Source of the DNA: an uncultured Candidatus Peribacteria bacterium
GTDB lineage: Bacteria > Patescibacteriota > Gracilibacteria > UBA1369 > UM-FILTER-41-14
Direction of reading: 5' to 3'
DNA: 47,396 nt
NCBI GenBank assembly: GCA_964386265.1
Contig: CAYLRB010000004.1
Location: 1-47,396, forward strand
Positions within the stretch are counted from its first letter, which is position 1. Each line of letters opens with the position of its first letter. A model generated the notes under the pieces. The model was not told the DNA's origin, did no database searches, and worked only from the letters and a program-made list of their open reading frames with translations. Of the stretch, positions 6,731-39,540 are shown in pieces. A program made the position numbers and the translations under genes.

Positions 6731-7336
6731 TTATTGTGTAGGTGGTAGTTTACAGTATTCTACTAATTGAGCTAACTCAGGATCGGTTGTTTGACAAGTA
6801 TGAGCAGTGGAAACTCTTAATTTTGATTCAGTAGTTGGGCTGCAGGTTTTTACATTATTGTTTGGGTTTTGACCTACTGTTAAAGTGGTACAGATTTGTC
6901 TTGGCTCTGGGAAAAAGTTTTTATTCATTATTTGAACGGCACTTGTATCTATTGATAGATAACCAGCGGTATTTAATTTTGTGTACCCGATTTGCCAAAA
7001 TTGAGTTGTTGTATCAGGAGCTGGGGTAAATATACATTGAGTTGTTCCTTGCATATTTGGGTCAGCTTGTTCAAAAATAATATTTGGTTTTTTGTGTAAA
7101 ATAATGCAGTCTATGTGTGCAGTTGGAGCAATATTTTTGCAAGTGATGTCTACAGATTTGAGAGGTTCGTTGTTGAGAGTAGTACTTTCTGCTACAGCAA
7201 TACTGCAGACTCCATCTTTTATACCATTTGTTATTTGAGCAGGAATGCTCGGTTTTTGTTGTTGGCAGCCTGCTAGTAATGTACCAGCAGCTAAGATAAG
7301 GTTTAAAGATGTATTTTTTAACGTGTTTGTTGACAT
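6731..7336 (-). CDS. Cys-rich lipoprotein, unknown function
   Basis: N-terminal LILAAGTLLAGC lipobox (L-A-G-C) after a short hydrophobic segment. The mature part has nine Cys residues. Lies upstream of and co-oriented with the two ORFs above. Confidence 0.55.
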   Translation of the reverse strand: MSTNTLKNTSLNLILAAGTLLAGCQQQKPSIPAQITNGIKDGVCSIAVAESTTLNNEPLKSVDITCKNIAPTAHIDCIILHKKPNIIFEQADPNMQGTTQCIFTPAPDTTTQFWQIGYTKLNTAGYLSIDTSAVQIMNKNFFPEPRQICTTLTVGQNPNNNVKTCSPTTESKLRVSTAHTCQTTDPELAQLVEYCKLPPTQ

Positions 7337-27298: not shown

Positions 27299-28396
27299 GT
27301 GGAAATTTCGTTAACACCAACTAATAAAGAATTAGGGTTGTCGCAGTTAACTCATGGAAGACAAGATCAGTTTATTGAGCTGTTCCCTGATGAACCTAAA
27401 TACCGCTGGCAACAAATTGAAGAATCGTTACTTGCCGGCGTGTATGGTGGTTGGGATGAGTTGACTAATTTGCCTAAGTTTTTGAGAGAGGAGTTGAAAC
27501 TTAAAATGCCTTGGTTAAGTATTGAGCCAAAAGTTACTTTACAGAGTAAAAATAGAGATACTTATAAAGCTGCGTTTGCTTGTGAAGCTGGCGAATTTGA
27601 GTCAGTTTTGATGTCGAATGCTCGTGGTGATTGGACGATCTGTGTTTCTTCGCAGATTGGGTGTGGGATGGGATGTTCGTTTTGTGCTACAGGTAAAATG
27701 GGGTTTAAGTATAATCTACATAGTGATCAAATTGTGGATCAGTACCGTTACTGGAATTTTTTTATTAAGCAAAACCCTGAAGTTGGTGGGCGAATTAGCA
27801 ATATTGTTTTTATGGGTATGGGTGAACCGCTTGCGAACTATAAAAATGTAACAAAAGCAATTAGAGACTTGTTAAAACATACTGATTTGGGGCCAACAAA
27901 AATTACGGTTTCGTCGGTTGGTGTTGTTCCCGTATTGAAGAAGATTCTGTCAGATCCAGAATGGCCGCCAGTTAGAATTGCTATTTCACTCCATAGTGCT
28001 GATAAAATTACGCGAGGGGAAATTATTCAAACTTCTTATGAAAACTTTCTGGAAGACCTTAAAGAGTGGTCAATTGCTTATTTGAATACTTTGGGAAATC
28101 GCAGGCATCATATTACTTTTGAGTATGTAATGTTGAATGAAGTAAATGACAGTTTAGATGCAGCAAAAAAACTGGCAAATTTTGTTAAAAATATTGGCAA
28201 TTCAGAAAGTGTGAAAGTTAATTTAATTCCGTACAACTATACAGGAGATGTTTATCGCTGCAGTGAAGAAGAGCGTTTTGTTGCATTTATGAAGGTTTTG
28301 CAAGATGCTGGTGTAAATGTAACTCGTCGCAAAACAATGGGTGACGATATTAATGCTGCTTGTGGACAACTAATTACTTTGAGGCAAGAGGGCTAG
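27299..28396 (+). CDS. rlmN: 23S rRNA/tRNA adenine-C2 methyltransferase, radical SAM (RlmN/Cfr family)
   Basis: CVSSQIGCGMGCSFCATG radical-SAM CxxxCxxC cluster, GMGEPLAN, and a C-terminal INAACGQL Cys. GTG start. Confidence 0.8.
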   Translation: MEISLTPTNKELGLSQLTHGRQDQFIELFPDEPKYRWQQIEESLLAGVYGGWDELTNLPKFLREELKLKMPWLSIEPKVTLQSKNRDTYKAAFACEAGEFESVLMSNARGDWTICVSSQIGCGMGCSFCATGKMGFKYNLHSDQIVDQYRYWNFFIKQNPEVGGRISNIVFMGMGEPLANYKNVTKAIRDLLKHTDLGPTKITVSSVGVVPVLKKILSDPEWPPVRIAISLHSADKITRGEIIQTSYENFLEDLKEWSIAYLNTLGNRRHHITFEYVMLNEVNDSLDAAKKLANFVKNIGNSESVKVNLIPYNYTGDVYRCSEEERFVAFMKVLQDAGVNVTRRKTMGDDINAACGQLITLRQEG

Positions 28397-29321
28397 TTTT
28401 TCGCTTGTTTTGTAAATAATCTGAAATAGCTTTTGGGTTTGAAACCCAGTTTCGACTTTCTTTAAAAGCATCAATTTTACCTTGGCGAGCTAATAAACTT
28501 AAATAATCTTGAGAAAATGGTGTGCTTTTGGCCAAATCTCGCAGCGAAATATAATCATATTCTGTTGATTGATATCCGCCGCATGCCTCTAGGTGTAGGT
28601 CTAGGGATCTTTCAACAGCTTGGGCTACTAATAATTCAAGTTTTTGATAATTTCCATTGTTTGCTAAATTAAGTGCTTCGTAGTATTTAAACCGATCATT
28701 TTTTAGGATAATTGCAGGTGGAAAACCTGCTTGCATTAATATTAGATTCATTAATAGTCGCCCAGTCCGTCCATTGCCATCGAAAAATGGATGAATCCAG
28801 ACGAATTTATGGTGAAAATGAGTCGCTAAGGTTACAGGATTAGCTAAATTCATTTGTTTTTTTGTCCATGTAACTAAATTCTTCATTAATTCTGGCACTT
28901 TTCGAGAGTTGGGTGGTATAAAATTTGCACCGATAATTCTGACTCTGCCGTTTCTGTATCTGCCTTTAAAATCTTCTTCTATTCGGTCTAATACAAGAGT
29001 TTGAATATTTAGGATAATATTTTCGGTTATTTGTGATGATTTTTGAACTAATTTTGATAAGAATTCAATGGCATGTTGATGATTTTGAGCTTCAAAGTGC
29101 TCGCGTAAAGATTTTCCTTTTATTGTAATCCCTTGTTCAATTAGTAACTTGGTTTCTCTTAATGTTAGAGAATTGCCTTCAATGGCATTTGAGTTGTATG
29201 TCCATTCTAGATTTAATTGCTCTGTTAATCGATTCAAAATTACTTTAGACAGCGGTCTATTTTTGTATAGTAGAGCCTTTTTTTCTTTAATTCGCTGCAA
29301 AATGTTTTCAGTCGTGCTCAT
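28374..29321 (-). CDS. Fic (Fido) family protein
   Basis: HPFFDGNGRTGR Fic core motif. There is an upstream SNAIEGN segment of the (S/T)xxxE(G/N) inhibitory-helix type. The 3' end overlaps the convergent rlmN by 23 nt. Confidence 0.8.
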   Translation of the reverse strand: MSTTENILQRIKEKKALLYKNRPLSKVILNRLTEQLNLEWTYNSNAIEGNSLTLRETKLLIEQGITIKGKSLREHFEAQNHQHAIEFLSKLVQKSSQITENIILNIQTLVLDRIEEDFKGRYRNGRVRIIGANFIPPNSRKVPELMKNLVTWTKKQMNLANPVTLATHFHHKFVWIHPFFDGNGRTGRLLMNLILMQAGFPPAIILKNDRFKYYEALNLANNGNYQKLELLVAQAVERSLDLHLEACGGYQSTEYDYISLRDLAKSTPFSQDYLSLLARQGKIDAFKESRNWVSNPKAISDYLQNKRKTSPLASK

Positions 29322-32193: not shown

Positions 32194-35100
32194 TTGTCAA
32201 TGGCTATAAATAACAATTCAAATAGAGTTAAAAAATTTGAAAAAGCTGGTTACAGTATCCATTTTGATCGCTTTCGTGATATGCGATGTGACATATCGGC
32301 AATAAGAACTCACAAGTTTAAATGTAAAATCCCTAGAGGTGCAGAAAATAGCTTGTGCGAAAAATTTGAAGGTGTTGCAGGCGTGGTAGGTTCGAGTGAT
32401 AAGGGGTCTTTACTTTGGTTTCTTGTGCAGCTTTATGGGTTGGGTTTTTTATTTGTTTCAAAAGAAGGGAGTAAGAATGCTCTACTAAACAAGCTATATG
32501 GCAGAGATAGTGATGAGTTGGAAATTTCGTCAGACTACAGAGACCACATTCAAAATAAAGAAGCTTTAGCGGAGTTTCTTACTAAAAGCCCTCGCAATGT
32601 TCTTGAAGCTATAAAAGATGATCTCCTTCCCCAGTCGATAATCAAAGGCCTTGTCACGATTTTTTGTCAGAAGGAAAGCAAAATTGATACAAAGAAATTG
32701 CCGGAAAATTCAGTGTTGAAACGAGCTCATGACGGATTGTTAGATCTCGCAAGAAAGAGGAATCGATTGAGTCAAGGTGATATTCAGGAATTTTTTGGTA
32801 TCAAAATTGATGCTCAAGATACTGGTGGAACAACTTTTGTTATTCAGGAAATTCCTTTAGCAGATCTAAAAAAAAACGCTGTTGGAATTGAAATTTATGA
32901 TGCTTATTTTCGTTGTTTGCTGCCCGCATCACAAAAGACCGGTTATGATATTCAGTCGCTTGCGGGTGTTTCAGAAAATCAAAATGCTCTTTCTAACCTT
33001 TTTGGAAAATCACTAAAGGCTTTTCAAAATAGTTACGATGAGTGCAGACGTTTGTTAAGTTTCGGAAATCCTGACTATTTAAAAAAGCATCCAGAGATAT
33101 TAGATTTTCTTGCAAATGCAGTGCATCGAATTGCTCGTGATGTAAATTCATCTGCTACATCTGACTTCATTGCTGATAATTGGGGAGAATATAGAAATCT
33201 AGTGGGGGGAAGGTTACAGGGCTGGCTTTCTAACTTCCAAAATCGTTTAAAATTGTTTGAAGAAGCTCTTTCAGATGGAGTAAAAGGCGATAAAGTTGAT
33301 TCGAAAAAAGTAGCAAAAACTCATAAAGAAGTTTTTGAAGAAATAAAAAATAGCTGTGATTGGAGAAGAGTTTTTCCCCCAACACAGCGTCTAAATTTTG
33401 AGAAGTTATGTGAGTTGAGAGCTTCTCTTGCTAAGTCTTTGAAAGCGATTAAAGGAGAAATAAAATCAGAAAATAAACAAAAAGATTTCGGCACTTTGCT
33501 TAATGAATATAATGTGTATTTGCAAGGCTTCAGAGAGTTTTTAATGAAGTGGAGTAACGAGGGAATTCCGGAGAATTTTGAAGATGAAGATGGCAAAACG
33601 CATAAAATCAAAATCGAGAAATTGAAAAAGGGCGACGCCCAAATTCAAGCTGTTCCTGGAGAATTTGAGATATTTATAAATCTAACTGGCGGTGATTCAA
33701 AGAAGAAAAAATCGAAGAAAAACTTTGAGGAACAGAAAGAAGAGAAAAGTGAGAATTTAGATCAGAAGGTAATTGGCTATTGGTCAAGCTCCTTTGTTCC
33801 ATCTGTGCTAGATCGCTATCCGCGTTTTATTGGTCAGGCGCAAAAAGATCCCCAGAAAGAAATTGATAATGCTCGTAAATCTTTATTCATGATGGCTTCA
33901 GAGGCTATTCAATTTGTCAGAGAAATTCGTAAGAACAACGCAAAAGACAAAAAATTTTCTGCCGAAAAATGGCTGAAGGGAAAAAGAGGAAATGGTCACG
34001 GATTATTTCATAAGAATCTTGACACCTTGCGAGGACTGGCTTCGCGATTTGATGAAACTAAAATTGAAAAATCGCATTCATTCAAATTTCTACAAAAATT
34101 TGTCGATCCTCAAAATTCTCTTGATGATGAGCAAAATGGAAAATGGCAGAAGAAAAATTTGTCAGCAGTGAATTTTTTTGTTTCTGGTTATGAGTATCGA
34201 AACAAAAACTTTTTAGCCGCAAAAGAAGTTAGTTTCGATGATTATTTAAAAATTTTTGAAGAGCATTTTAGACTAGATAAAGTATGCTCAGAAGCTGATT
34301 TAAAAAACTGGCTCGGCTTTCAAGGTGACAACATTTCTTGGTTCACAAATGAATTCGGAGAAGTTTTAAAAATTTATCTCTCTTTGCTGCTACGTGATCT
34401 TGATAAAAAAATTGAATTACCAACTTCATTGCAAGATTTTCATGAGCTAAAGAAAACAACTTTGGCTAGTTTGTTGTTTGATGATTCAGGAAAGATGAAG
34501 TCTGGTAATGTGGATGTAGAAACGGTTCGCGGATTTTTTGCCTCAAGTATTGGCTCGGAAATTCGCAGCAAAATTTCTATTCTTTCGCGTAAAAATTACC
34601 TGAAGCGCAATGTCATCCAAATCACCAACGGCGCACAAACTTTATTGCGTTATGTTCCAATTGAGTGGGGGAATTTTGATCATCTTAGCGAGAAGTCTCG
34701 TAAAAAAATCTGTCGCAATTACATCAAACGTAAAACATATAAAACTTATTCCGGTTTTTCAGAAGAAAATTTAGAGATACTGAAAACCGAAGAAATCAAA
34801 GGCTCAACCAGCGCTGAGATTGCAGCAGCAATTTGGAAAAATTTCTCCACTCAAAATAATGATACGCAAAGAAAATTGGCGCAAATTCTTGGTGAAATGC
34901 CGCATCGCTGGGAAGTTGTTTTGAAAACAGAACAGCCAATCAACGGTCTTGATACAATTGAAAGTGGTTTGTTGTTGGAAAAGTCGAACAAAAGAAATGT
35001 CTTTAATTTCTGCTTAAAAAAAACTGGCTATCTTCACTCATTGCCAATCCAAACTTCAGTTTACCAAAAGCAGTTTCTCGATAAATTTTTATGGGGAGAT

Positions 35101-36201
35101 AAGAAAGGGGTGCTCACTGAGAAAATCATGGGAGCTAGCGTCATTATTGAACAGATCATTGATATAAAAACAGGCTTGCTGAAAAGGCCGAAAAATAGTG
35201 AAGAAAATTTTTCACTTTACTGCGCTATCCCATTCCAGTTCGCAAAAGAAGAAGGCGAAAAGAATCGATTCAAAAAAGAAGAAAAACACAGTGGCAAATA
35301 TCGACTCTCAACTAATGACCATGAAAATGTTCTTGGCATTGATCTAGGTGAATATGGTTTTGGTTGGGCGTTGTTTGATCCAGTAACTCAGAAATTTGGA
35401 AAAAAAGGTTTTGTTGAAATTCCTTTGTTACAAAAAATGCGTGATGGTGCCGCAAATTGGAAAGATGCACAAGCTAGCGGAATTTTTTCTCGTCCAACGA
35501 CTTACCTTGCTGACATTCGCGAACAAGCTGCTGGACAAATCCGCAACCAAATTCACCATTTAGCAATTACTCACAAAGCCAAACCTGTTTACGAAGATTC
35601 AGTTGATGGCTTTGAAAGTGGCGGTCAACGCGTTTCTAAGCTCTACAAAACTCTCAAAACATCTGACGTAATTTCTGGTGTTTCGAATTCAGCTGATGAA
35701 GCTGTACGTAGTCATTTTTGGGGAAATAAGTTTGTACAAATTGGCGGTGTTATTGGTGCGGCGAAGACTTCGCAGACTTGTAGAAAATGTGGCAAATGTG
35801 CTACTCATGAAGTTAGAAAACTTGAAGTAGATGAGGTTGAGATTGTGAACAAAGTGATAATAGGTTCTGGCGTTTATTGTGACTTTGAGAATGGAAAATT
35901 TTCTAAGAAGGAAGTAGAAGCCGCCGTGAAAAAAGCTCAACGTTTTGAGTCTGAAGAAGAAAAAAAAGCTCGCGAATCAGGAAAAAAATTTCGTGGAACT
36001 GTGGAGCAATTTGAGTGTCAGATGGTTGATTGTTATAATGTTACTGACGCTGATGCACAAGCTGCGCAAAACATTGCTCTGAAGTTTTACCTGAAGTCTG
36101 CTGTGACCGCGGAGGAGAAAGAATTATTTCAAACTGAGGATGGGAATTTTTCTACTTTGAGATATTTTCTAGCAAAGTCTAAGGATTTTTTAACTGAATA
36201 A
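32194..36201 (+). CDS. cas12d: type V CRISPR single effector, Cas12d (CasY)-like RuvC nuclease
   Basis: 1335 aa (TTG 32194; ATG alternative at 32200), first gene of the cas4-cas1-cas2-array operon. RuvC-I is [12 protein letters not shown] (D1050, nt 35341). RuvC-II is KPVYEDSVD (E1134, nt 35593). RuvC-III is [16 protein letters not shown] (D1285/D1287, nt 36046-36054). A Cys4 zinc ribbon (CRKC at C1196/C1199; CQMVDC at C1275/C1280) is inserted between RuvC-II and RuvC-III. No HNH domain. Several segments resemble CasY.1 as I recall it. Subtype assignment within the Cas12c/Cas12d clade is an inference. Confidence 0.85.
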
Positions 36202-36207
36202 TTTATT

Positions 36208-36771
36208 ATGCTTCCATTGTCATATGTAGCGGAGTATACATATTGTCAGCGTAGTGCTTTCTACCTATTGGTTGATACTAACTCCGTATACCGTAATGAA
36301 AATGAATACATTCAGGAGGGTAGACTTGTCCACCAGAAAATTGATATAGGCTATGCATATGCAAAAGCTGAGAGAAGGGTTGAGTCATCTTTTTTTGTAT
36401 TTTCTAAAGCATTAAATATTCTTGGGAAAATAGATTTAGTTGAATTTTTTGAAGATAAAATCGTACCAATTGAAGTAAAAAGGGGAATAAGGAGAAATAA
36501 TGAAATGCACACTGTGCAATTGATATTAGCTGCATTGTGCTTACAAGAAATGTTTCCTGCTCATCGCATTGAAAAAGGGGCAATTTTTTTTACTGGAGAT
36601 AGAAAAAGAATAGAAATTGAATTCGATGACCATTTGATACAAAAAACATTAAATTTAGTTTATGAATTGAACAAAAAAACTGATAAAATTTTAGATCCTA
36701 GAAATTTTAAGATGCAGAAAGGGAAAATCTGTCAAGGATGTTGTTTTTATGACTTGTGTCATGTGGAATAG
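36208..36771 (+). CDS. cas4: Cas4 (RecB-like nuclease with Fe-S Cys cluster)
   Basis: N-terminal YTYCQRSAFY Cys, GKIDLVE (motif II Asp), IEVKRG (ExK), QLILAAL (Q motif), C-terminal CQGCCFYDLC (C-x2-C-x5-C). Lies 6 nt after the effector stop. Confidence 0.85.
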   Translation: MLPLSYVAEYTYCQRSAFYLLVDTNSVYRNENEYIQEGRLVHQKIDIGYAYAKAERRVESSFFVFSKALNILGKIDLVEFFEDKIVPIEVKRGIRRNNEMHTVQLILAALCLQEMFPAHRIEKGAIFFTGDRKRIEIEFDDHLIQKTLNLVYELNKKTDKILDPRNFKMQKGKICQGCCFYDLCHVE

Positions 36772-36809
36772 TATTGTATATTTGTATCTTTGTGTTTCTA
36801 ATCTATAAA

Positions 36810-37799
36810 ATGACTTATTTAGTCGAGAGGCCAACATTGTTTGTTGTTGCAAGAAAAAATGATGTCATTGAGAAATATGGTGAAAATATTAGAATTCGCA
36901 ATTCAAATACAGCTGAACTTAGGAAGAAAGTACCAGCAATACATGTCAGAGATATTGTTGTTTGTGGTGATATAAATATTGATTCGACTGTGATTGTGCT
37001 TGCCGAAAAATACTCTATTCCAATTCACTTTTTAAGTAATGGCGGAAAATTCAGGGCATCAATCTACTTTGATTTTTCGAAAAATGTTTTTTTGAGATCA
37101 AAACAATTTGAAATGGCGAATAATATTAAAACAAAAGTAGATTTAGCTATTAACTTTGTTCAAGCCAAAATTTATAATCAAAATATCGCTTTGAGAAAAA
37201 TTAGAGCAAAAGGAAGGCTAAAGCCTAATTTGAATAAGATCATTGATTTAAATGTGTTAAGAGGTGTTGAAGGTGCATCTGCACAAAAGTATTTTTCAAT
37301 TTGGAAAATCGAAAGTGTAATTAAAAACAAAAATTTTAAATTCCAAGGTCGCTTTAAACGACCCGCTACGGATGAAGTAAATGCACTACTATCATTTTGT
37401 TTTTCACTATTGCATAGTGAGATACATACACAACTTATGATTGCTGGCTTGGATCCCTTTGTTGGTTTTTTGCACGAGCAATCATTTGGTCACTCTGCAT
37501 TAGCTAGCGACTTTTTAGAGACTTTTAGAGGTCCGGTTGAACACTTTGTTTGGAAGACTTTGAATCGAAAAGAATTTGATAAATCAGAGGATTTTGAGCG
37601 AGATGTAAGAAATGGTACAGTGCAGCTCTCAACAAAAGGGTTTAAGAAGTTTTTTCCTAAATGGACTAAATTTTTAAGAACTGACGAATTAAACCTTGGT
37701 TATAATTTAACTAGATTAATTGAAATTGATATTAGAAGTTTTGTCCATTTTTTAATGGGTGACAAAGAAGAACATACTCCATTTAAATGGCAAATATGA
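36810..37799 (+). CDS. cas1: Cas1 integrase
   Basis: The start is placed at ATG 36810 (MTYLVERPTLFVV); the GTG-initiated extension from 36756 overlaps cas4. LRGVEGASAQKYF (catalytic Glu region), NALLSFCFSLLHSE, GLDPFVGFLHEQSFGHSALASDFLETFR (His and acidic residues of the Cas1 active site). Confidence 0.85.
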   Translation: MTYLVERPTLFVVARKNDVIEKYGENIRIRNSNTAELRKKVPAIHVRDIVVCGDINIDSTVIVLAEKYSIPIHFLSNGGKFRASIYFDFSKNVFLRSKQFEMANNIKTKVDLAINFVQAKIYNQNIALRKIRAKGRLKPNLNKIIDLNVLRGVEGASAQKYFSIWKIESVIKNKNFKFQGRFKRPATDEVNALLSFCFSLLHSEIHTQLMIAGLDPFVGFLHEQSFGHSALASDFLETFRGPVEHFVWKTLNRKEFDKSEDFERDVRNGTVQLSTKGFKKFFPKWTKFLRTDELNLGYNLTRLIEIDIRSFVHFLMGDKEEHTPFKWQI

Positions 37800-38089
37800 G
37801 GGAGAGATTTTTTGTGATATACGATTTTGTTAGTGATAGTAGACGCGCAAAATTTGCGAAAATTTTAGAGAAATATGGTATAAGAATTCAGTATTCGGTA
37901 TTTGAATTCTCTTTAACTAAAGCTAGAAAAACAGAGCTGTTTGCAAAGATGAAACAAAATGATTTTTTGCGTAATAATAGACAAGAGTCAATAATGATAT
38001 TGCCAATTTCAAATGAATTTTTACGAAAAATCGAGAGATATGGTGATACAACTGATATATTTGATCAAGCTGGTATATTCTTAGTTTGA
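37787..38089 (+). CDS. cas2: Cas2
   Basis: FVIYDFVSDSRRAKFAKILEKYGIRIQYSVFEFSL is the classic Cas2 N-terminal beta-alpha-beta with catalytic Asp. The likely real start is ATG 37796, forming an ATGA overlap with the cas1 stop. Confidence 0.85.
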   Translation: MANMRERFFVIYDFVSDSRRAKFAKILEKYGIRIQYSVFEFSLTKARKTELFAKMKQNDFLRNNRQESIMILPISNEFLRKIERYGDTTDIFDQAGIFLV

Positions 38090-38423
38090 CTTTTTTACTA
38101 TTGTTTTATATCTTGTTTATGGTTCTTTAAATTTTGTTTCAACCACCTTTTAGATTTATTTAAAGGGGAAATGACACATTATTGAAGGATTGGCTTAGAT
38201 TCTAAACTGCCAATTATTTGGTTATTGATGCAAATGATTGGTTGTTTGGAATTAAAAGCGCCTATTCTAAGGATTTATCTTTATTTAAAGGTAATATACA
38301 GCTCTTTACGCGGAACAGAGGTTTGCATGATGTATTTGTTTGTCATATGGTAATGCTTGAAAATGTTTACATCAGACTGAATAAGACAAACCTTTTATTG
38401 ATCTTTTACAAGCTGTTTATGGA
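38090..38423 (+). other. CRISPR leader / non-coding region between cas2 and repeat 1
   Basis: 334 nt, AT-rich, with no credible ORF (the 75-aa track ORF runs into repeat 1). Contains promoter-like TTGCAT-17 nt-TATGGT (38323-38351) about 70 nt upstream of repeat 1. Confidence 0.6.
38189..38241 (+). ncRNA. candidate anti-repeat (tracrRNA/scoutRNA-like) element
   Basis: 38189-38199 ATTGGCTTAGA is the exact reverse complement of repeat nt 2-12. 38222-38230 TTATTGATG is the exact reverse complement of repeat nt 14-22. The two blocks lie in two alternative hairpins (38189-38214; 38210-38241). Transcript ends and strand are unknown. Confidence 0.3.
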
Positions 38424-39374
38424 GTCTAAGCCAATTCATCAATAAGCAAGTCATAGAAACCTATAAATGTACAAGGTGGATGGGCTATCATTGGTCTAAG
38501 CCAATTCATCAATAAGCAAGTCATAGAAACTGCCGTAGTAATACCCTTTTTCCCTTAACATCGTCTAAGCCAATTCATCAATAAGCAAGTCATAGAAACC
38601 TTTACTTTAATTCCAACAACTACTTAACATGGGTCTAAGCCAATTCATCAATAAGCAAGTCATAGAAACATGCGGCTTCGCTTTTTTGACGCAAAAGTTC
38701 CTCAGTCTAAGCCAATTCATCAATAAGCAAGTCATAGAAACATTGTTGAGACAAAGACCTTAATTCACCTACGGCAGTCTAAGCCAATTCATCAATAAGC
38801 AAGTCATAGAAACTACAATTATTATATAACTAAGCTCAGAAAGCTTGTCTAAGCCAATTCATCAATAAGCAAGTCATAGAAACATTAGCTGAAATACTAT
38901 TAGGTTTAATCACAAATGTCTAAGCCAATTCATCAATAAGCAAGTCATAGAAACATTAGCTTCTTCACGGTTGAGGACATGGTTTTTGTCTAAGCCAATT
39001 CATCAATAAGCAAGTCATAGAAACGTATGATAGGGTTACATTCATCATCTAACCCCACAGTCTAAGCCAATTCATCAATAAGCAAGTCATAGAAACTTAA
39101 AATACCGTCAGACGTTGAAACGCCTGGTCTAAGCCAATTCATCAATAAGCAAGTCATAGAAACTGGTCCTCTAACTGCTTAACGATCCGCTGAAAGTCTA
39201 AGCCAATTCATCAATAAGCAAGTCATAGAAACATTGAAGACGCGGAGGCCCTACTTCTCGATATAGTCTAAGCCAATTCATCAATAAGCAAGTCATAGAA
39301 ACCAGGAAGAGAAAGCTCTTTGTATCAAGCGGCCTTGGTCTAAGCCAATTCATCAATAAGCAAGTCATAGAAAC
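38424..39374 (+). CRISPR. CRISPR array, 14 identical 37-nt repeats and 13 spacers (30-35 nt)
   Basis: Repeat is GTCTAAGCCAATTCATCAATAAGCAAGTCATAGAAAC. Repeat starts are 38424, 38494, 38563, 38633, 38705, 38777, 38847, 38918, 38988, 39060, 39127, 39196, 39266 and 39338. Spacers 1-7: ctataaatgtacaaggtggatgggctatcattg; tgccgtagtaataccctttttcccttaacatc; ctttactttaattccaacaactacttaacatgg; atgcggcttcgcttttttgacgcaaaagttcctca; attgttgagacaaagaccttaattcacctacggca; tacaattattatataactaagctcagaaagctt; attagctgaaatactattaggtttaatcacaaat. Spacers 8-13: attagcttcttcacggttgaggacatggttttt; gtatgatagggttacattcatcatctaaccccaca; ttaaaataccgtcagacgttgaaacgcctg; tggtcctctaactgcttaacgatccgctgaaa; attgaagacgcggaggccctacttctcgatata; caggaagagaaagctctttgtatcaagcggccttg. 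The strand is tentative: co-oriented with the cas genes and the repeat ends in GAAAC. Confidence 0.97.
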
Positions 39375-39465: not shown

Positions 39466-39540
39466 TGGCTCCCCGAGTTGGGCTCGAACCAACGACCTAC
39501 CGGTTAACAGCCGGTTGCTCTACCACTGAGCTATCGGGGA
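39466..39540 (-). tRNA. tRNA-Asn (anticodon GTT), CCA encoded
   Basis: Minus strand reads TCCCCGA-TA-GCTC-AGTGGTA-GAGC-A-ACCGG-CTGTTAA-CCGGT-AGGTC-GTTGG-TTCGAGC-CCAAC-TCGGGGA-G-CCA. This is a canonical cloverleaf with 7/4/5/5-bp stems, a TTCGAGC T-loop and anticodon loop CT-GTT-AA. Confidence 0.93.

Follow-up and report, generated by a model that had tools for sequence, protein, structure and literature searches.

An intact, divergent Cas12d-like effector gene with cas4-cas1-cas2 and a predicted tracrRNA-like helper RNA in an uncultured Candidatus Peribacteria bacterium

Results

Organisation of the locus

A CRISPR-Cas locus was analysed in a 47,396-nt stretch of DNA from an uncultured Candidatus Peribacteria bacterium (contig CAYLRB010000004.1 of assembly GCA_964386265.1, positions 1 to 47,396; the window in what follows). 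A cas12d-like effector gene (32194..36201, +) is followed there, on the same strand, by the adaptation genes cas4, cas1 and cas2, by a predicted gene for a helper RNA resembling a trans-activating CRISPR RNA (tracrRNA) and by a CRISPR array. Judged from its sequence, the effector is very likely a divergent member of the Cas12d (CasY) family, the product of an intact gene for a putative RNA-guided nuclease, on a branch that is sister to the canonical type V-D effectors.

The adaptation genes were assigned by profile searches: cas4 (36208..36771, +) by Pfam Cas_Cas4 (E 3.6e-18) and TIGR00372, with Cas4c/Cas4d as the best PADLOC models; cas1 (36756..37799, +), which is type I-C/I-D-like, by Pfam Cas_Cas1 (E 2.5e-66), the closest NCBIfam models being those of I-D and I-C; and cas2 (37787..38089, +) by Pfam CRISPR_Cas2 (E 1.8e-14). 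The array (38424..39374, +) is built of 14 identical 37-nt repeats, GTCTAAGCCAATTCATCAATAAGCAAGTCATAGAAAC, which enclose 13 spacers of 30-35 nt.

Thirty-six related loci were retrieved, L001-L017 belonging to the clade of the window and L018-L036 to the canonical clade; as with known Cas12d/CasY, they come from metagenome-assembled genomes labelled as Candidate Phyla Radiation lineages. Wherever flanks were available (the window and 13 related loci), the window clade carries cas4-cas1-cas2, whereas the canonical clade has cas1 alone, with neither cas4 nor cas2 (14 of 19 loci where cas1 falls within the contig). The Cas1 lineage is also another one: only 19-29% partial identity was found between the window Cas1 and canonical V-D Cas1, thus it is not of the V-C/V-D type. 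To our knowledge, V-C loci encode Cas1 alone. The repeats of the window clade have 37 nt and end in (A/G)AAAC (AGAAAC in the window), with spacers of 29-36 nt, while those of the canonical clade have 25-26 nt and end in AAAGGC, with spacers of 17-20 nt. Across the 36 loci the split of the effector tree coincides cleanly with this difference in architecture. The canonical values agree with the published description of V-D (cas1-only adaptation, short repeats and spacers, the latter of 17-19 nt), and when the window was tested for the V-D locus features, i.e. cas1 only, 25-26-nt repeats with short spacers and a scoutRNA of short complementarity, none was found. At the level of the effector the locus holds a divergent member of a known family; at the level of the system three V-D-defining locus features are absent. 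Among the adaptation genes of the related loci, cas4 of L004 (2280-2843, -) contains an in-frame stop codon. The gene may be a pseudogene, the stop may stem from an error of sequencing, or the genetic code may be an alternative one.

Family membership of the effector

The effector open reading frame (ORF) is present and intact, and it encodes 1335 amino acids (aa) when read from a TTG; the public gene call begins at the ATG at 32200 and so gives 1333 aa. A gene fusion or a frameshift, which a preliminary description of this DNA had named as a possible pitfall, can be set aside as the source of the ORF, because collinear full-length homologues occur on more than 20 independent contigs.

The NCBIfam Cas12d equivalog (NF033951) matched the effector with 374.8 bits over aa 72-1301 (positions 72-1179 of the 1180 in the profile), above the cutoff of 250 bits that holds for both the Cas12d and the Cas12c equivalogs, and Cas12d was the top model in PADLOC with 216 bits; the CasY/Cas12d-like type V effector proposed in the preliminary description was thereby recovered. 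An alignment of the window-clade profile with the canonical Cas12d profile by hhalign gave E 5e-126 over 1072 columns and residues 6-1271. Pairwise BLASTP against canonical members reached 27-29% identity from about aa 750 on, and additionally at a REC1 motif. In a midpoint-rooted neighbour-joining tree of window-clade and canonical effectors, built with no Cas12c outgroup, the two groups formed sister clades and the window effector was not nested among the canonical ones. Other searches were less informative: word-indexed searches for homologues retrieved the close clade only, 14 proteins with a single sequence as the query and 16 with a profile, none of them a named CasY; the NCBIfam CasX model gave only a marginal C-terminal match; and the public homologues carry no informative names.

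It had been claimed that the first ~1050 aa lack any family signature, and in its strongest form this would confine membership of a known family to the C-terminal ~290 aa and make the N-terminal part a novel, family-less recognition lobe. Certain results look like that at first sight: the Pfam scan of the effector found nothing in the N-terminus, and only a weak, sub-threshold Cas12f1-like_TNB match altogether; the single-sequence search of the PDB gave only a weak stretch there; and the last ~290 aa alone score 242.5 bits, roughly two thirds of what the whole protein reaches on the Cas12d profile. However, residues 1-1045 alone matched the Cas12d model with E 2.6e-35 (122 bits, aa 72-1031), the hhalign alignment starts at residue 6, and the profile of the clade matched the N-terminal halves of Cas12c1 and Cas12c2 with domain E values of 3e-17 and 2.9e-15, beside the full-length structural matches described below. 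Furthermore, phmmer, run exhaustively with the N-terminal 1045 aa over 1.84 billion representative proteins, returned only 30 matches, three of which score 770-815 bits on the Cas12d model, the range of the canonical Cas12d representatives. A family-less N-terminus is thus refuted, and we regard it as next to impossible.

The 1335 aa are, as the preliminary description stated, more than CasY proteins have: the canonical stop-to-stop ORFs encode 1082-1286 aa, those of the window clade 1253-1475 aa, so that the effector is longer than canonical CasY and typical of its own clade. Alignment with canonical Cas12d, a check proposed in the preliminary description, located about 127 extra residues of the window clade, mainly in two blocks. 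The first (aa 459-526; 33568..33771, +) lies in the REC1-REC2 linker, includes a Lys-rich loop, faces at least 80% gaps in canonical Cas12d and has low predicted local distance difference test (pLDDT) values at 501-524. The second (aa 825-882; 34666..34839, +), also opposite gaps in the canonical sequences, is a helical block within the WED-II region, with modelled helices 837-851, 857-865 and 873-884 between beta strands.

Larger relatives of ~1560-1570 aa with 28% identity were also encountered, one encoded in L012 (3483-8198) and another, P0023 (1561 aa), scoring 239.5 bits, just under the Cas12d cutoff; in L012 the array stands between cas2 and the effector, and an H1-like motif lies on the opposite strand. 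These relatives may represent a further branch of the family.

Catalytic motifs and zinc ribbon

All recognisable catalytic motifs and the zinc ribbon were indeed located in the last ~290 aa, which form a split RuvC domain with a zinc-ribbon TNB inserted, and every motif quoted in the preliminary description occurs exactly once in the effector. The RuvC-I motif stands at 35335..35367 (+; aa 1048-1058), 3 nt from the previously given 35338-35370; its catalytic residue was correctly named as D1050, which aligns with Cas12c1 D969 and Cas12c2 D928. The RuvC-II string KPVYEDS was found exactly where it had been placed (35581..35601, +) with catalytic E1134, its Y-E pair aligning with RuvC-II of Cas12c (Cas12c1 E1060). 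The TNB/Nuc domain (about aa 1190-1282; 35761..36039, +) contains R1250 and a CCCC zinc ribbon formed by C1196, C1199, C1275 and C1280, belonging to CRKC (35779-35790, +) and CQMVDC (36016-36033, +), both exact strings at the positions given earlier. The RuvC-III motif also stands as described (36043..36087, +), with one correction: of the two aspartates offered, D1285 and D1287, only the latter is catalytic according to the alignment with Cas12c1 D1266 and Cas12c2 D1201. All 24 family members compared share D1050, E1134, D1287 and the four cysteines. R1250 is invariant as well and aligns with Cas12c1 R1233, the TNB arginine that is essential for cleavage according to the R1233A phenotype (PMC9723637).

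The preliminary description had further paired several peptides of the effector with peptides ascribed to CasY.1. Four of the five ascribed peptides were found exactly in the canonical Cas12d ORF L023:924-4244, while the fifth would fall past the end of the contig. In BLASTP this ORF shows 29% identity to the effector over 505 aa, and the ascribed peptides align to the motifs with which they had been paired; for the REC1 motif and a WED helix the counterparts are exact CasY strings. A 12-residue motif of the effector from these pairs stands exactly at 35053-35088. The identity of the L023 ORF with CasY.1 itself could not be confirmed: its RuvC Asp and Glu lie at ~936 and ~1022, and D827/E913 are given for KbCas12d/CasY.1 in a preprint.

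The N-terminal lobe

Two overlapping AlphaFold (AF2) models were made, covering aa 136-1335 and aa 1-1200 with pLDDT of ~69-70. When the predicted structure was compared with the PDB, as had been proposed, the best Foldseek matches were Cas12c2 (7v94; E 4.7e-26, template modelling (TM) score 0.43-0.47) and Cas12c1 (7vyx; E 5.8e-22, TM 0.47), over more than 1200 columns and with the same domain order, followed by CasX and then by Cas12a. Structures of Cas12d were absent from the searched copy of the PDB.

Cas12c1 and Cas12c2 are the only solved relatives, so it has to be considered whether the effector is itself a Cas12c (V-C) protein and not a Cas12d. The Cas12c models in PADLOC reach 156-162 bits, and the dual RNA of the locus, in which tracrRNA and repeat pair through several separated segments, resembles the Cas12c1 single-guide RNA. 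Nevertheless the NCBIfam Cas12c equivalog gave 79.6 bits, below its cutoff, against 374.8 for Cas12d; Cas12d is also the best PADLOC model; sequence identity to Cas12c is only ~12-15%; and the structural ranking cannot discriminate between the two families with a PDB copy that contains no Cas12d. The guide RNAs differ as well: the repeat-derived segment is 21 nt in the Cas12c1 crRNA (CRISPR RNA) and 18 nt were used for Cas12c2, and V-C, like V-D, processes spacers of ~17-22 nt, as reported for Cas12c2 (PMC9522604), unlike the window locus with its 37-nt repeat, ~33-nt spacers and complete adaptation module. A Cas12c identity is accordingly very improbable, and the effector is treated here as a Cas12d relative whose N-terminus can be read with the help of Cas12c.

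The first ~1045 aa most likely form a Cas12c-type REC lobe with WED, in the order WED beta1, PI-like insert, REC1, Lys-rich linker, REC2 and WED-II, in place of the REC/WED region that the preliminary description had held not to be interpretable by eye. The numbering of the Cas12c chains was verified via A969 in the D969A chain and via Cas12c2 D928 (14-residue tag offset). The WED strand beta1 (aa 35-44; 32296..32325, +) was located by alignment to 7vyx and by a modelled strand at 35-44; in the profile alignment its I37, R38, T39 and K43 correspond to Cas12c1 L52, K53, T54 and K58, which abut the first guide:target pair and the guide-adjacent repeat:anti-repeat duplex (PMC9723637). Between strands 85-87 and 215-217 seven modelled helices occupy approximately aa 88-214 (32455..32835, +). 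In Cas12c2 two strands of REC1 enclose the PI domain (residues 88-240; PMC9522604), and by comparison with the model we infer that aa ~88-214 would be a PI-like insert between two REC1 beta strands.

Further residues of the lobe correspond to those that read the protospacer adjacent motif (PAM). In the NQNALS motif (aa 262-267; 32977..32994, +), N262 and N264 align with Cas12c1 N297 and N299, which serve in PAM readout and unwinding (PMC9723637), and neither Q263 nor L266 varies within the clade. The REC1 motif (aa 328-348; 33175..33237, +), found exactly where the preliminary description had placed it, aligns with NHWGGYRSDINGKLSSWLQNY of canonical Cas12d, and its Y, R, G and W are invariant throughout the family; it has the form W..YR..GG.L..W.SNY/F, shared with Cas12d/CasY together with an SxYQxQFL helix and the Lys-rich linker. 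R334 of this motif aligns with Cas12c1 R374 and Cas12c2 R351, the arginine reading the PAM T (PMC9723637, PMC9522604), and the helix after R334 corresponds to REC1 alpha8, which is positioned over the seed in Cas12c. The Lys-rich loop extends over nt 33697-33753, not to ~33760 as supposed before; the likeness to CasY claimed for it was borne out by EKKKKPKKRKKKSDAEDEKE at the equivalent position of the canonical L023 ORF. It occupies the place of the Gly/Lys-rich linker K509-Q527 of Cas12c1, which joins REC1 with REC2 and runs along the guide (PMC9723637). Since no solved Cas12d structure was available from the PDB copy, the resulting residue map (T39, N264, R334, R1250 and D1050/E1134/D1287) is directly testable by mutagenesis.

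The helper RNA

Between cas2 and the array lies an intergenic region of ~335 nt, and a helper-RNA module was found at this conserved position in 11 loci. The predicted tracrRNA-like gene of the window (38120..38255, +; 3' end uncertain) was delimited by its hairpins, anti-repeat, duplex energy and covariation. It starts with two recurrent modules, hairpin H1 with the conserved loop UUUAAAUUUUGUUUC (38120-38145, +) and hairpin H2, which is variable among the loci (38146-38167, +). They are followed by the anti-repeat (38170-38201, +), which pairs with nt 1-31 of the repeat in segments of 14+7+5 bp (26 bp), and by a 3' hairpin found by folding (38198-38253, +). A promoter-like site, TTGACT-17-TATCTT (38086-38114, +), ends 6 nt before H1. 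The fold of the window RNA has a z-score of -6.0, and Rfam returned no match to it. In most loci a stem-loop and a run of T after it, taken by eye for a rho-independent terminator, stand 3' of the anti-repeat. A 30-nt direct repeat, 73% identical and ending in ...TGTTTATGG, was noticed at 38093-38122, just 5' of H1, and at 38393-38422, just 5' of the first CRISPR repeat. The two copies may reflect a promoter or start-site context in common, an earlier duplication, or chance.

The anti-repeat of the window pairs with its repeat at -32.7 kcal/mol versus -14.5±2.7 kcal/mol with shuffled repeats. In the window clade the duplexes with the own repeat comprise 25-28 bp, with z of about -5 to -9 in five of the six loci having shuffle controls and about -3 in the sixth, L002. 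The own repeat is the best pairing partner of the helper RNA in 8 of 9 loci, compensatory changes are seen among loci in the anti-repeat segment GUCAU/GUCGU/GUUAU, and the anti-repeat is held between H2 and the terminator hairpin in 10 loci. The corresponding region of the canonical loci shows short complementarity only: z is about -1.5 to +1.5, six of seven being no better than shuffled (L025 has z -3.4), and what pairing there is consists mostly of GCCUU:AAGGC.

The loop of hairpin H1, UUUA(A/C)AUUUUGUUUC, is nearly invariant, and the H1 stem covaries, as measured by an own- versus cross-locus stem test: 4.1 bp-equivalents were obtained within the own locus versus 2.5 across loci, a value reached by none of 20,000 permutations (p<5e-5). 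RNAalifold on the gapless H1 alignment returned no structure, because the register of the stem shifts between loci, and a MAFFT alignment of the whole tracrRNA was too poor in H2 for a covariance model. The H1 loop ends in GUUUC, the complement of the unpaired repeat end GAAAC, and compensation is seen here too in L010, which has GUUUG with CAAAC; L003 shows a wobble. This loop, complementary to the last five repeat nt, has a counterpart of the same topology in the GCCUU of canonical Cas12d/CasY. In the array-cas12d interval of L019, L023, L032 and L034 an inner hairpin is enclosed by an outer stem, and GCCUU, complementary to the repeat 3' end AAGGC, was observed unpaired immediately 5' of the strand that closes this stem; the GCCUU element of the canonical loci is probably the scoutRNA core. 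In L010 a tracrRNA-like gene with a 19-nt anti-repeat and a strong terminator (6869-6960) was observed downstream of the effector and not adjacent to the array.

The scoutRNA of canonical Cas12d needs only ~5 nt of complementarity to the repeat, and in view of the GUUUC loop it can be asked whether the window RNA acts by such short pairing only, the long anti-repeat being an inert remnant, e.g. an inverted degenerate repeat. An inert remnant would not co-vary with its own repeat, and here the anti-repeat tracks the own repeat in nearly all loci compared, changes in a compensatory manner and keeps a fixed position, so this explanation is disfavoured and appears improbable. We consider it rather likely, by the pairing and covariation described, that the predicted helper RNA would be a tracrRNA with a scout-like head.

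Proposed mechanism and PAM

In the mechanism that we infer, the RNAs are predicted to be expressed and processed, and the PAM and the cutting of DNA are likewise predictions. A tracrRNA-like transcript would be produced from the cas2-array interval, its anti-repeat would pair with nt 1-31 of each 37-nt repeat, and GUUUC of the 5' hairpin loop might pair, scoutRNA-like, with the last five repeat nt, GAAAC. Host RNase III, acting on the long duplex, might mature the crRNA; alternatively, RuvC might trim its 3' end as in Cas12c. The dual RNA would load the effector, which could read a short 5' T-containing PAM, probably TA/TR, via the PI-like insert, N264 and R334; R-loop formation would follow, and the DNA would be cut at the single RuvC site, aided by R1250. 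Spacers of 30-35 bp would be acquired by Cas4-Cas1-Cas2 of I-C/I-D flavour.

The PAM was approached by a search of 125 spacers (window and related loci) against 50,697 phage records. It gave one protospacer match, from spacer 14 of L003 and not from the window: 32/34 positions in the VP1 capsid gene of a Microviridae genome from pig faeces (MG945571.1, 1732-1765; L037), with TA immediately 5'. Exact-pattern scans of IMG/VR found no protospacers. The match suggests microviruses as possible targets and a putative TA-type PAM; a 5'-TA/TR PAM is a feature of type V-D systems.

As regards cleavage, intact motifs are no proof of DNase activity, because Cas12c2, whose D/E/D triad is intact, does not cleave DNA in vitro and trims pre-crRNA with its RuvC (PMC9522604); DNase-free Cas12c is cited in the literature too. 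The protein of the window might similarly bind DNA without cutting and silence transcription, RuvC serving mainly for pre-crRNA processing. On the other hand, canonical Cas12d is reported to cut double-stranded DNA, with collateral cleavage of single-stranded DNA, and the cleavage-essential TNB arginine of Cas12c1 is kept as R1250. A non-cutting protein is thus unlikely, though less so than the other alternatives weighed here, and a DNA-cutting nuclease is the predicted function.

Flanking genes

The CRISPR-cas block is flanked by an ORF resembling uracil-DNA glycosylase and by a tRNA-Asn (GTT) gene (39466-39540, -), the latter ~90 nt past the last CRISPR repeat, and it stands among housekeeping-looking genes. 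About 3 kb upstream of the block an ORF (28374-29321, -) contains HPFFDGNGRTGR, recognised by eye, which we take to be a Fic-domain motif.

Discussion

The homology of the effector, the conservation of its motifs, the architecture of the locus, and the complementarity and covariation of the RNA were demonstrated directly by the comparisons above. Full-length homology, the RuvC motifs and the zinc ribbon connect the effector with Cas12d/CasY (KbCas12d/CasY.1, CasY15), from which it differs in its separate clade and extra residues. Cas12c (C2c3; 7vyx, 7v93, 7v94) offers the best whole-chain structural match and the counterparts of WED beta1, the PAM-reading residues (N299/R374), the REC1-REC2 linker, the RuvC triad and the TNB arginine. 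Additionally, V-B (Cas12b) and V-E (Cas12e/CasX) systems share with the window the combination of an effector with cas4-cas1-cas2 and a trans-encoded RNA with a long anti-repeat, a possible RNase III substrate, CasX being also the next-best structural match after Cas12c; their effectors are not closely related to that of the window, whose RNA has no Rfam counterpart and carries a scout-like 5' hairpin.

Several observations weigh against the interpretation given here. As to the protein, its Cas12d score of 375 bits is about half of the canonical 770-815, and the PADLOC models for Cas12c follow little behind that for Cas12d. The domain boundaries are approximate, because the AF2 confidence is moderate, the alignment had 15 sequences and the TM scores are 0.43-0.47. 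As to the RNA, the tracrRNA of the window has no canonical U-tract terminator of its own, the promoter-like match was no better than in shuffled sequence when scanned, the 5-nt pairing of loop and repeat end is not kept in L002 and L004, and the candidate in L012 shows no long anti-repeat. As to the function, the PAM is read from a single 32/34 protospacer match of another locus, and some Cas12c proteins, as cited above, keep the RuvC residues without cutting DNA in vitro.

Two published systems were considered as earlier descriptions and rejected: Casδ (NAR 2025), which has 867-936 aa, needs no tracrRNA and lacks an adaptation module, and the type V system of Vampirococcus with Cas4/Cas1/Cas2, which is based on Cpf1. 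No published Cas12d variant with Cas4 or a tracrRNA was found in a literature coverage that is incomplete, so that an earlier description is possible.

The anatomy of the effector alone is mostly ordinary, since it belongs to a known family and its N-terminus is readable via homology to Cas12c. It is the system that deserves attention: a sister clade without the three canonical oddities (Cas1-only adaptation, very short spacers, an RNA of near-zero complementarity) possesses the same effector architecture and a scout-like hairpin. Tentatively, and with somewhat less than even confidence, we suggest that the window clade might add to the Cas12c/Cas12d group a third branch not described before, which would amount to a new subtype similar to V-D. 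In it a hybrid RNA made of scout hairpin and full anti-repeat would couple a CasY-type effector to an I-C/I-D-like Cas4-Cas1-Cas2 and 37-nt repeats. It might represent either the ancestral state of the reduced V-C/V-D systems, whose minimal form consists of cas1 only, 18-nt spacers and a scoutRNA of short complementarity, or the outcome of a module swap that brought in a new anti-repeat, and the linker insertion might adapt the protein to guides of ~33 nt.

The clade provides a natural comparison for the relation of scoutRNA and tracrRNA, and for the way in which effector, integrase and guide length co-evolve. A specific candidate determinant is the linker insertion at aa 459-526, since the Cas12c1 linker runs along the guide. 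For genome editing, finally, it could be worthwhile to consider a nuclease of the Cas12d type whose guides exceed 17-19 nt and whose TA/TR PAM may be minimal.

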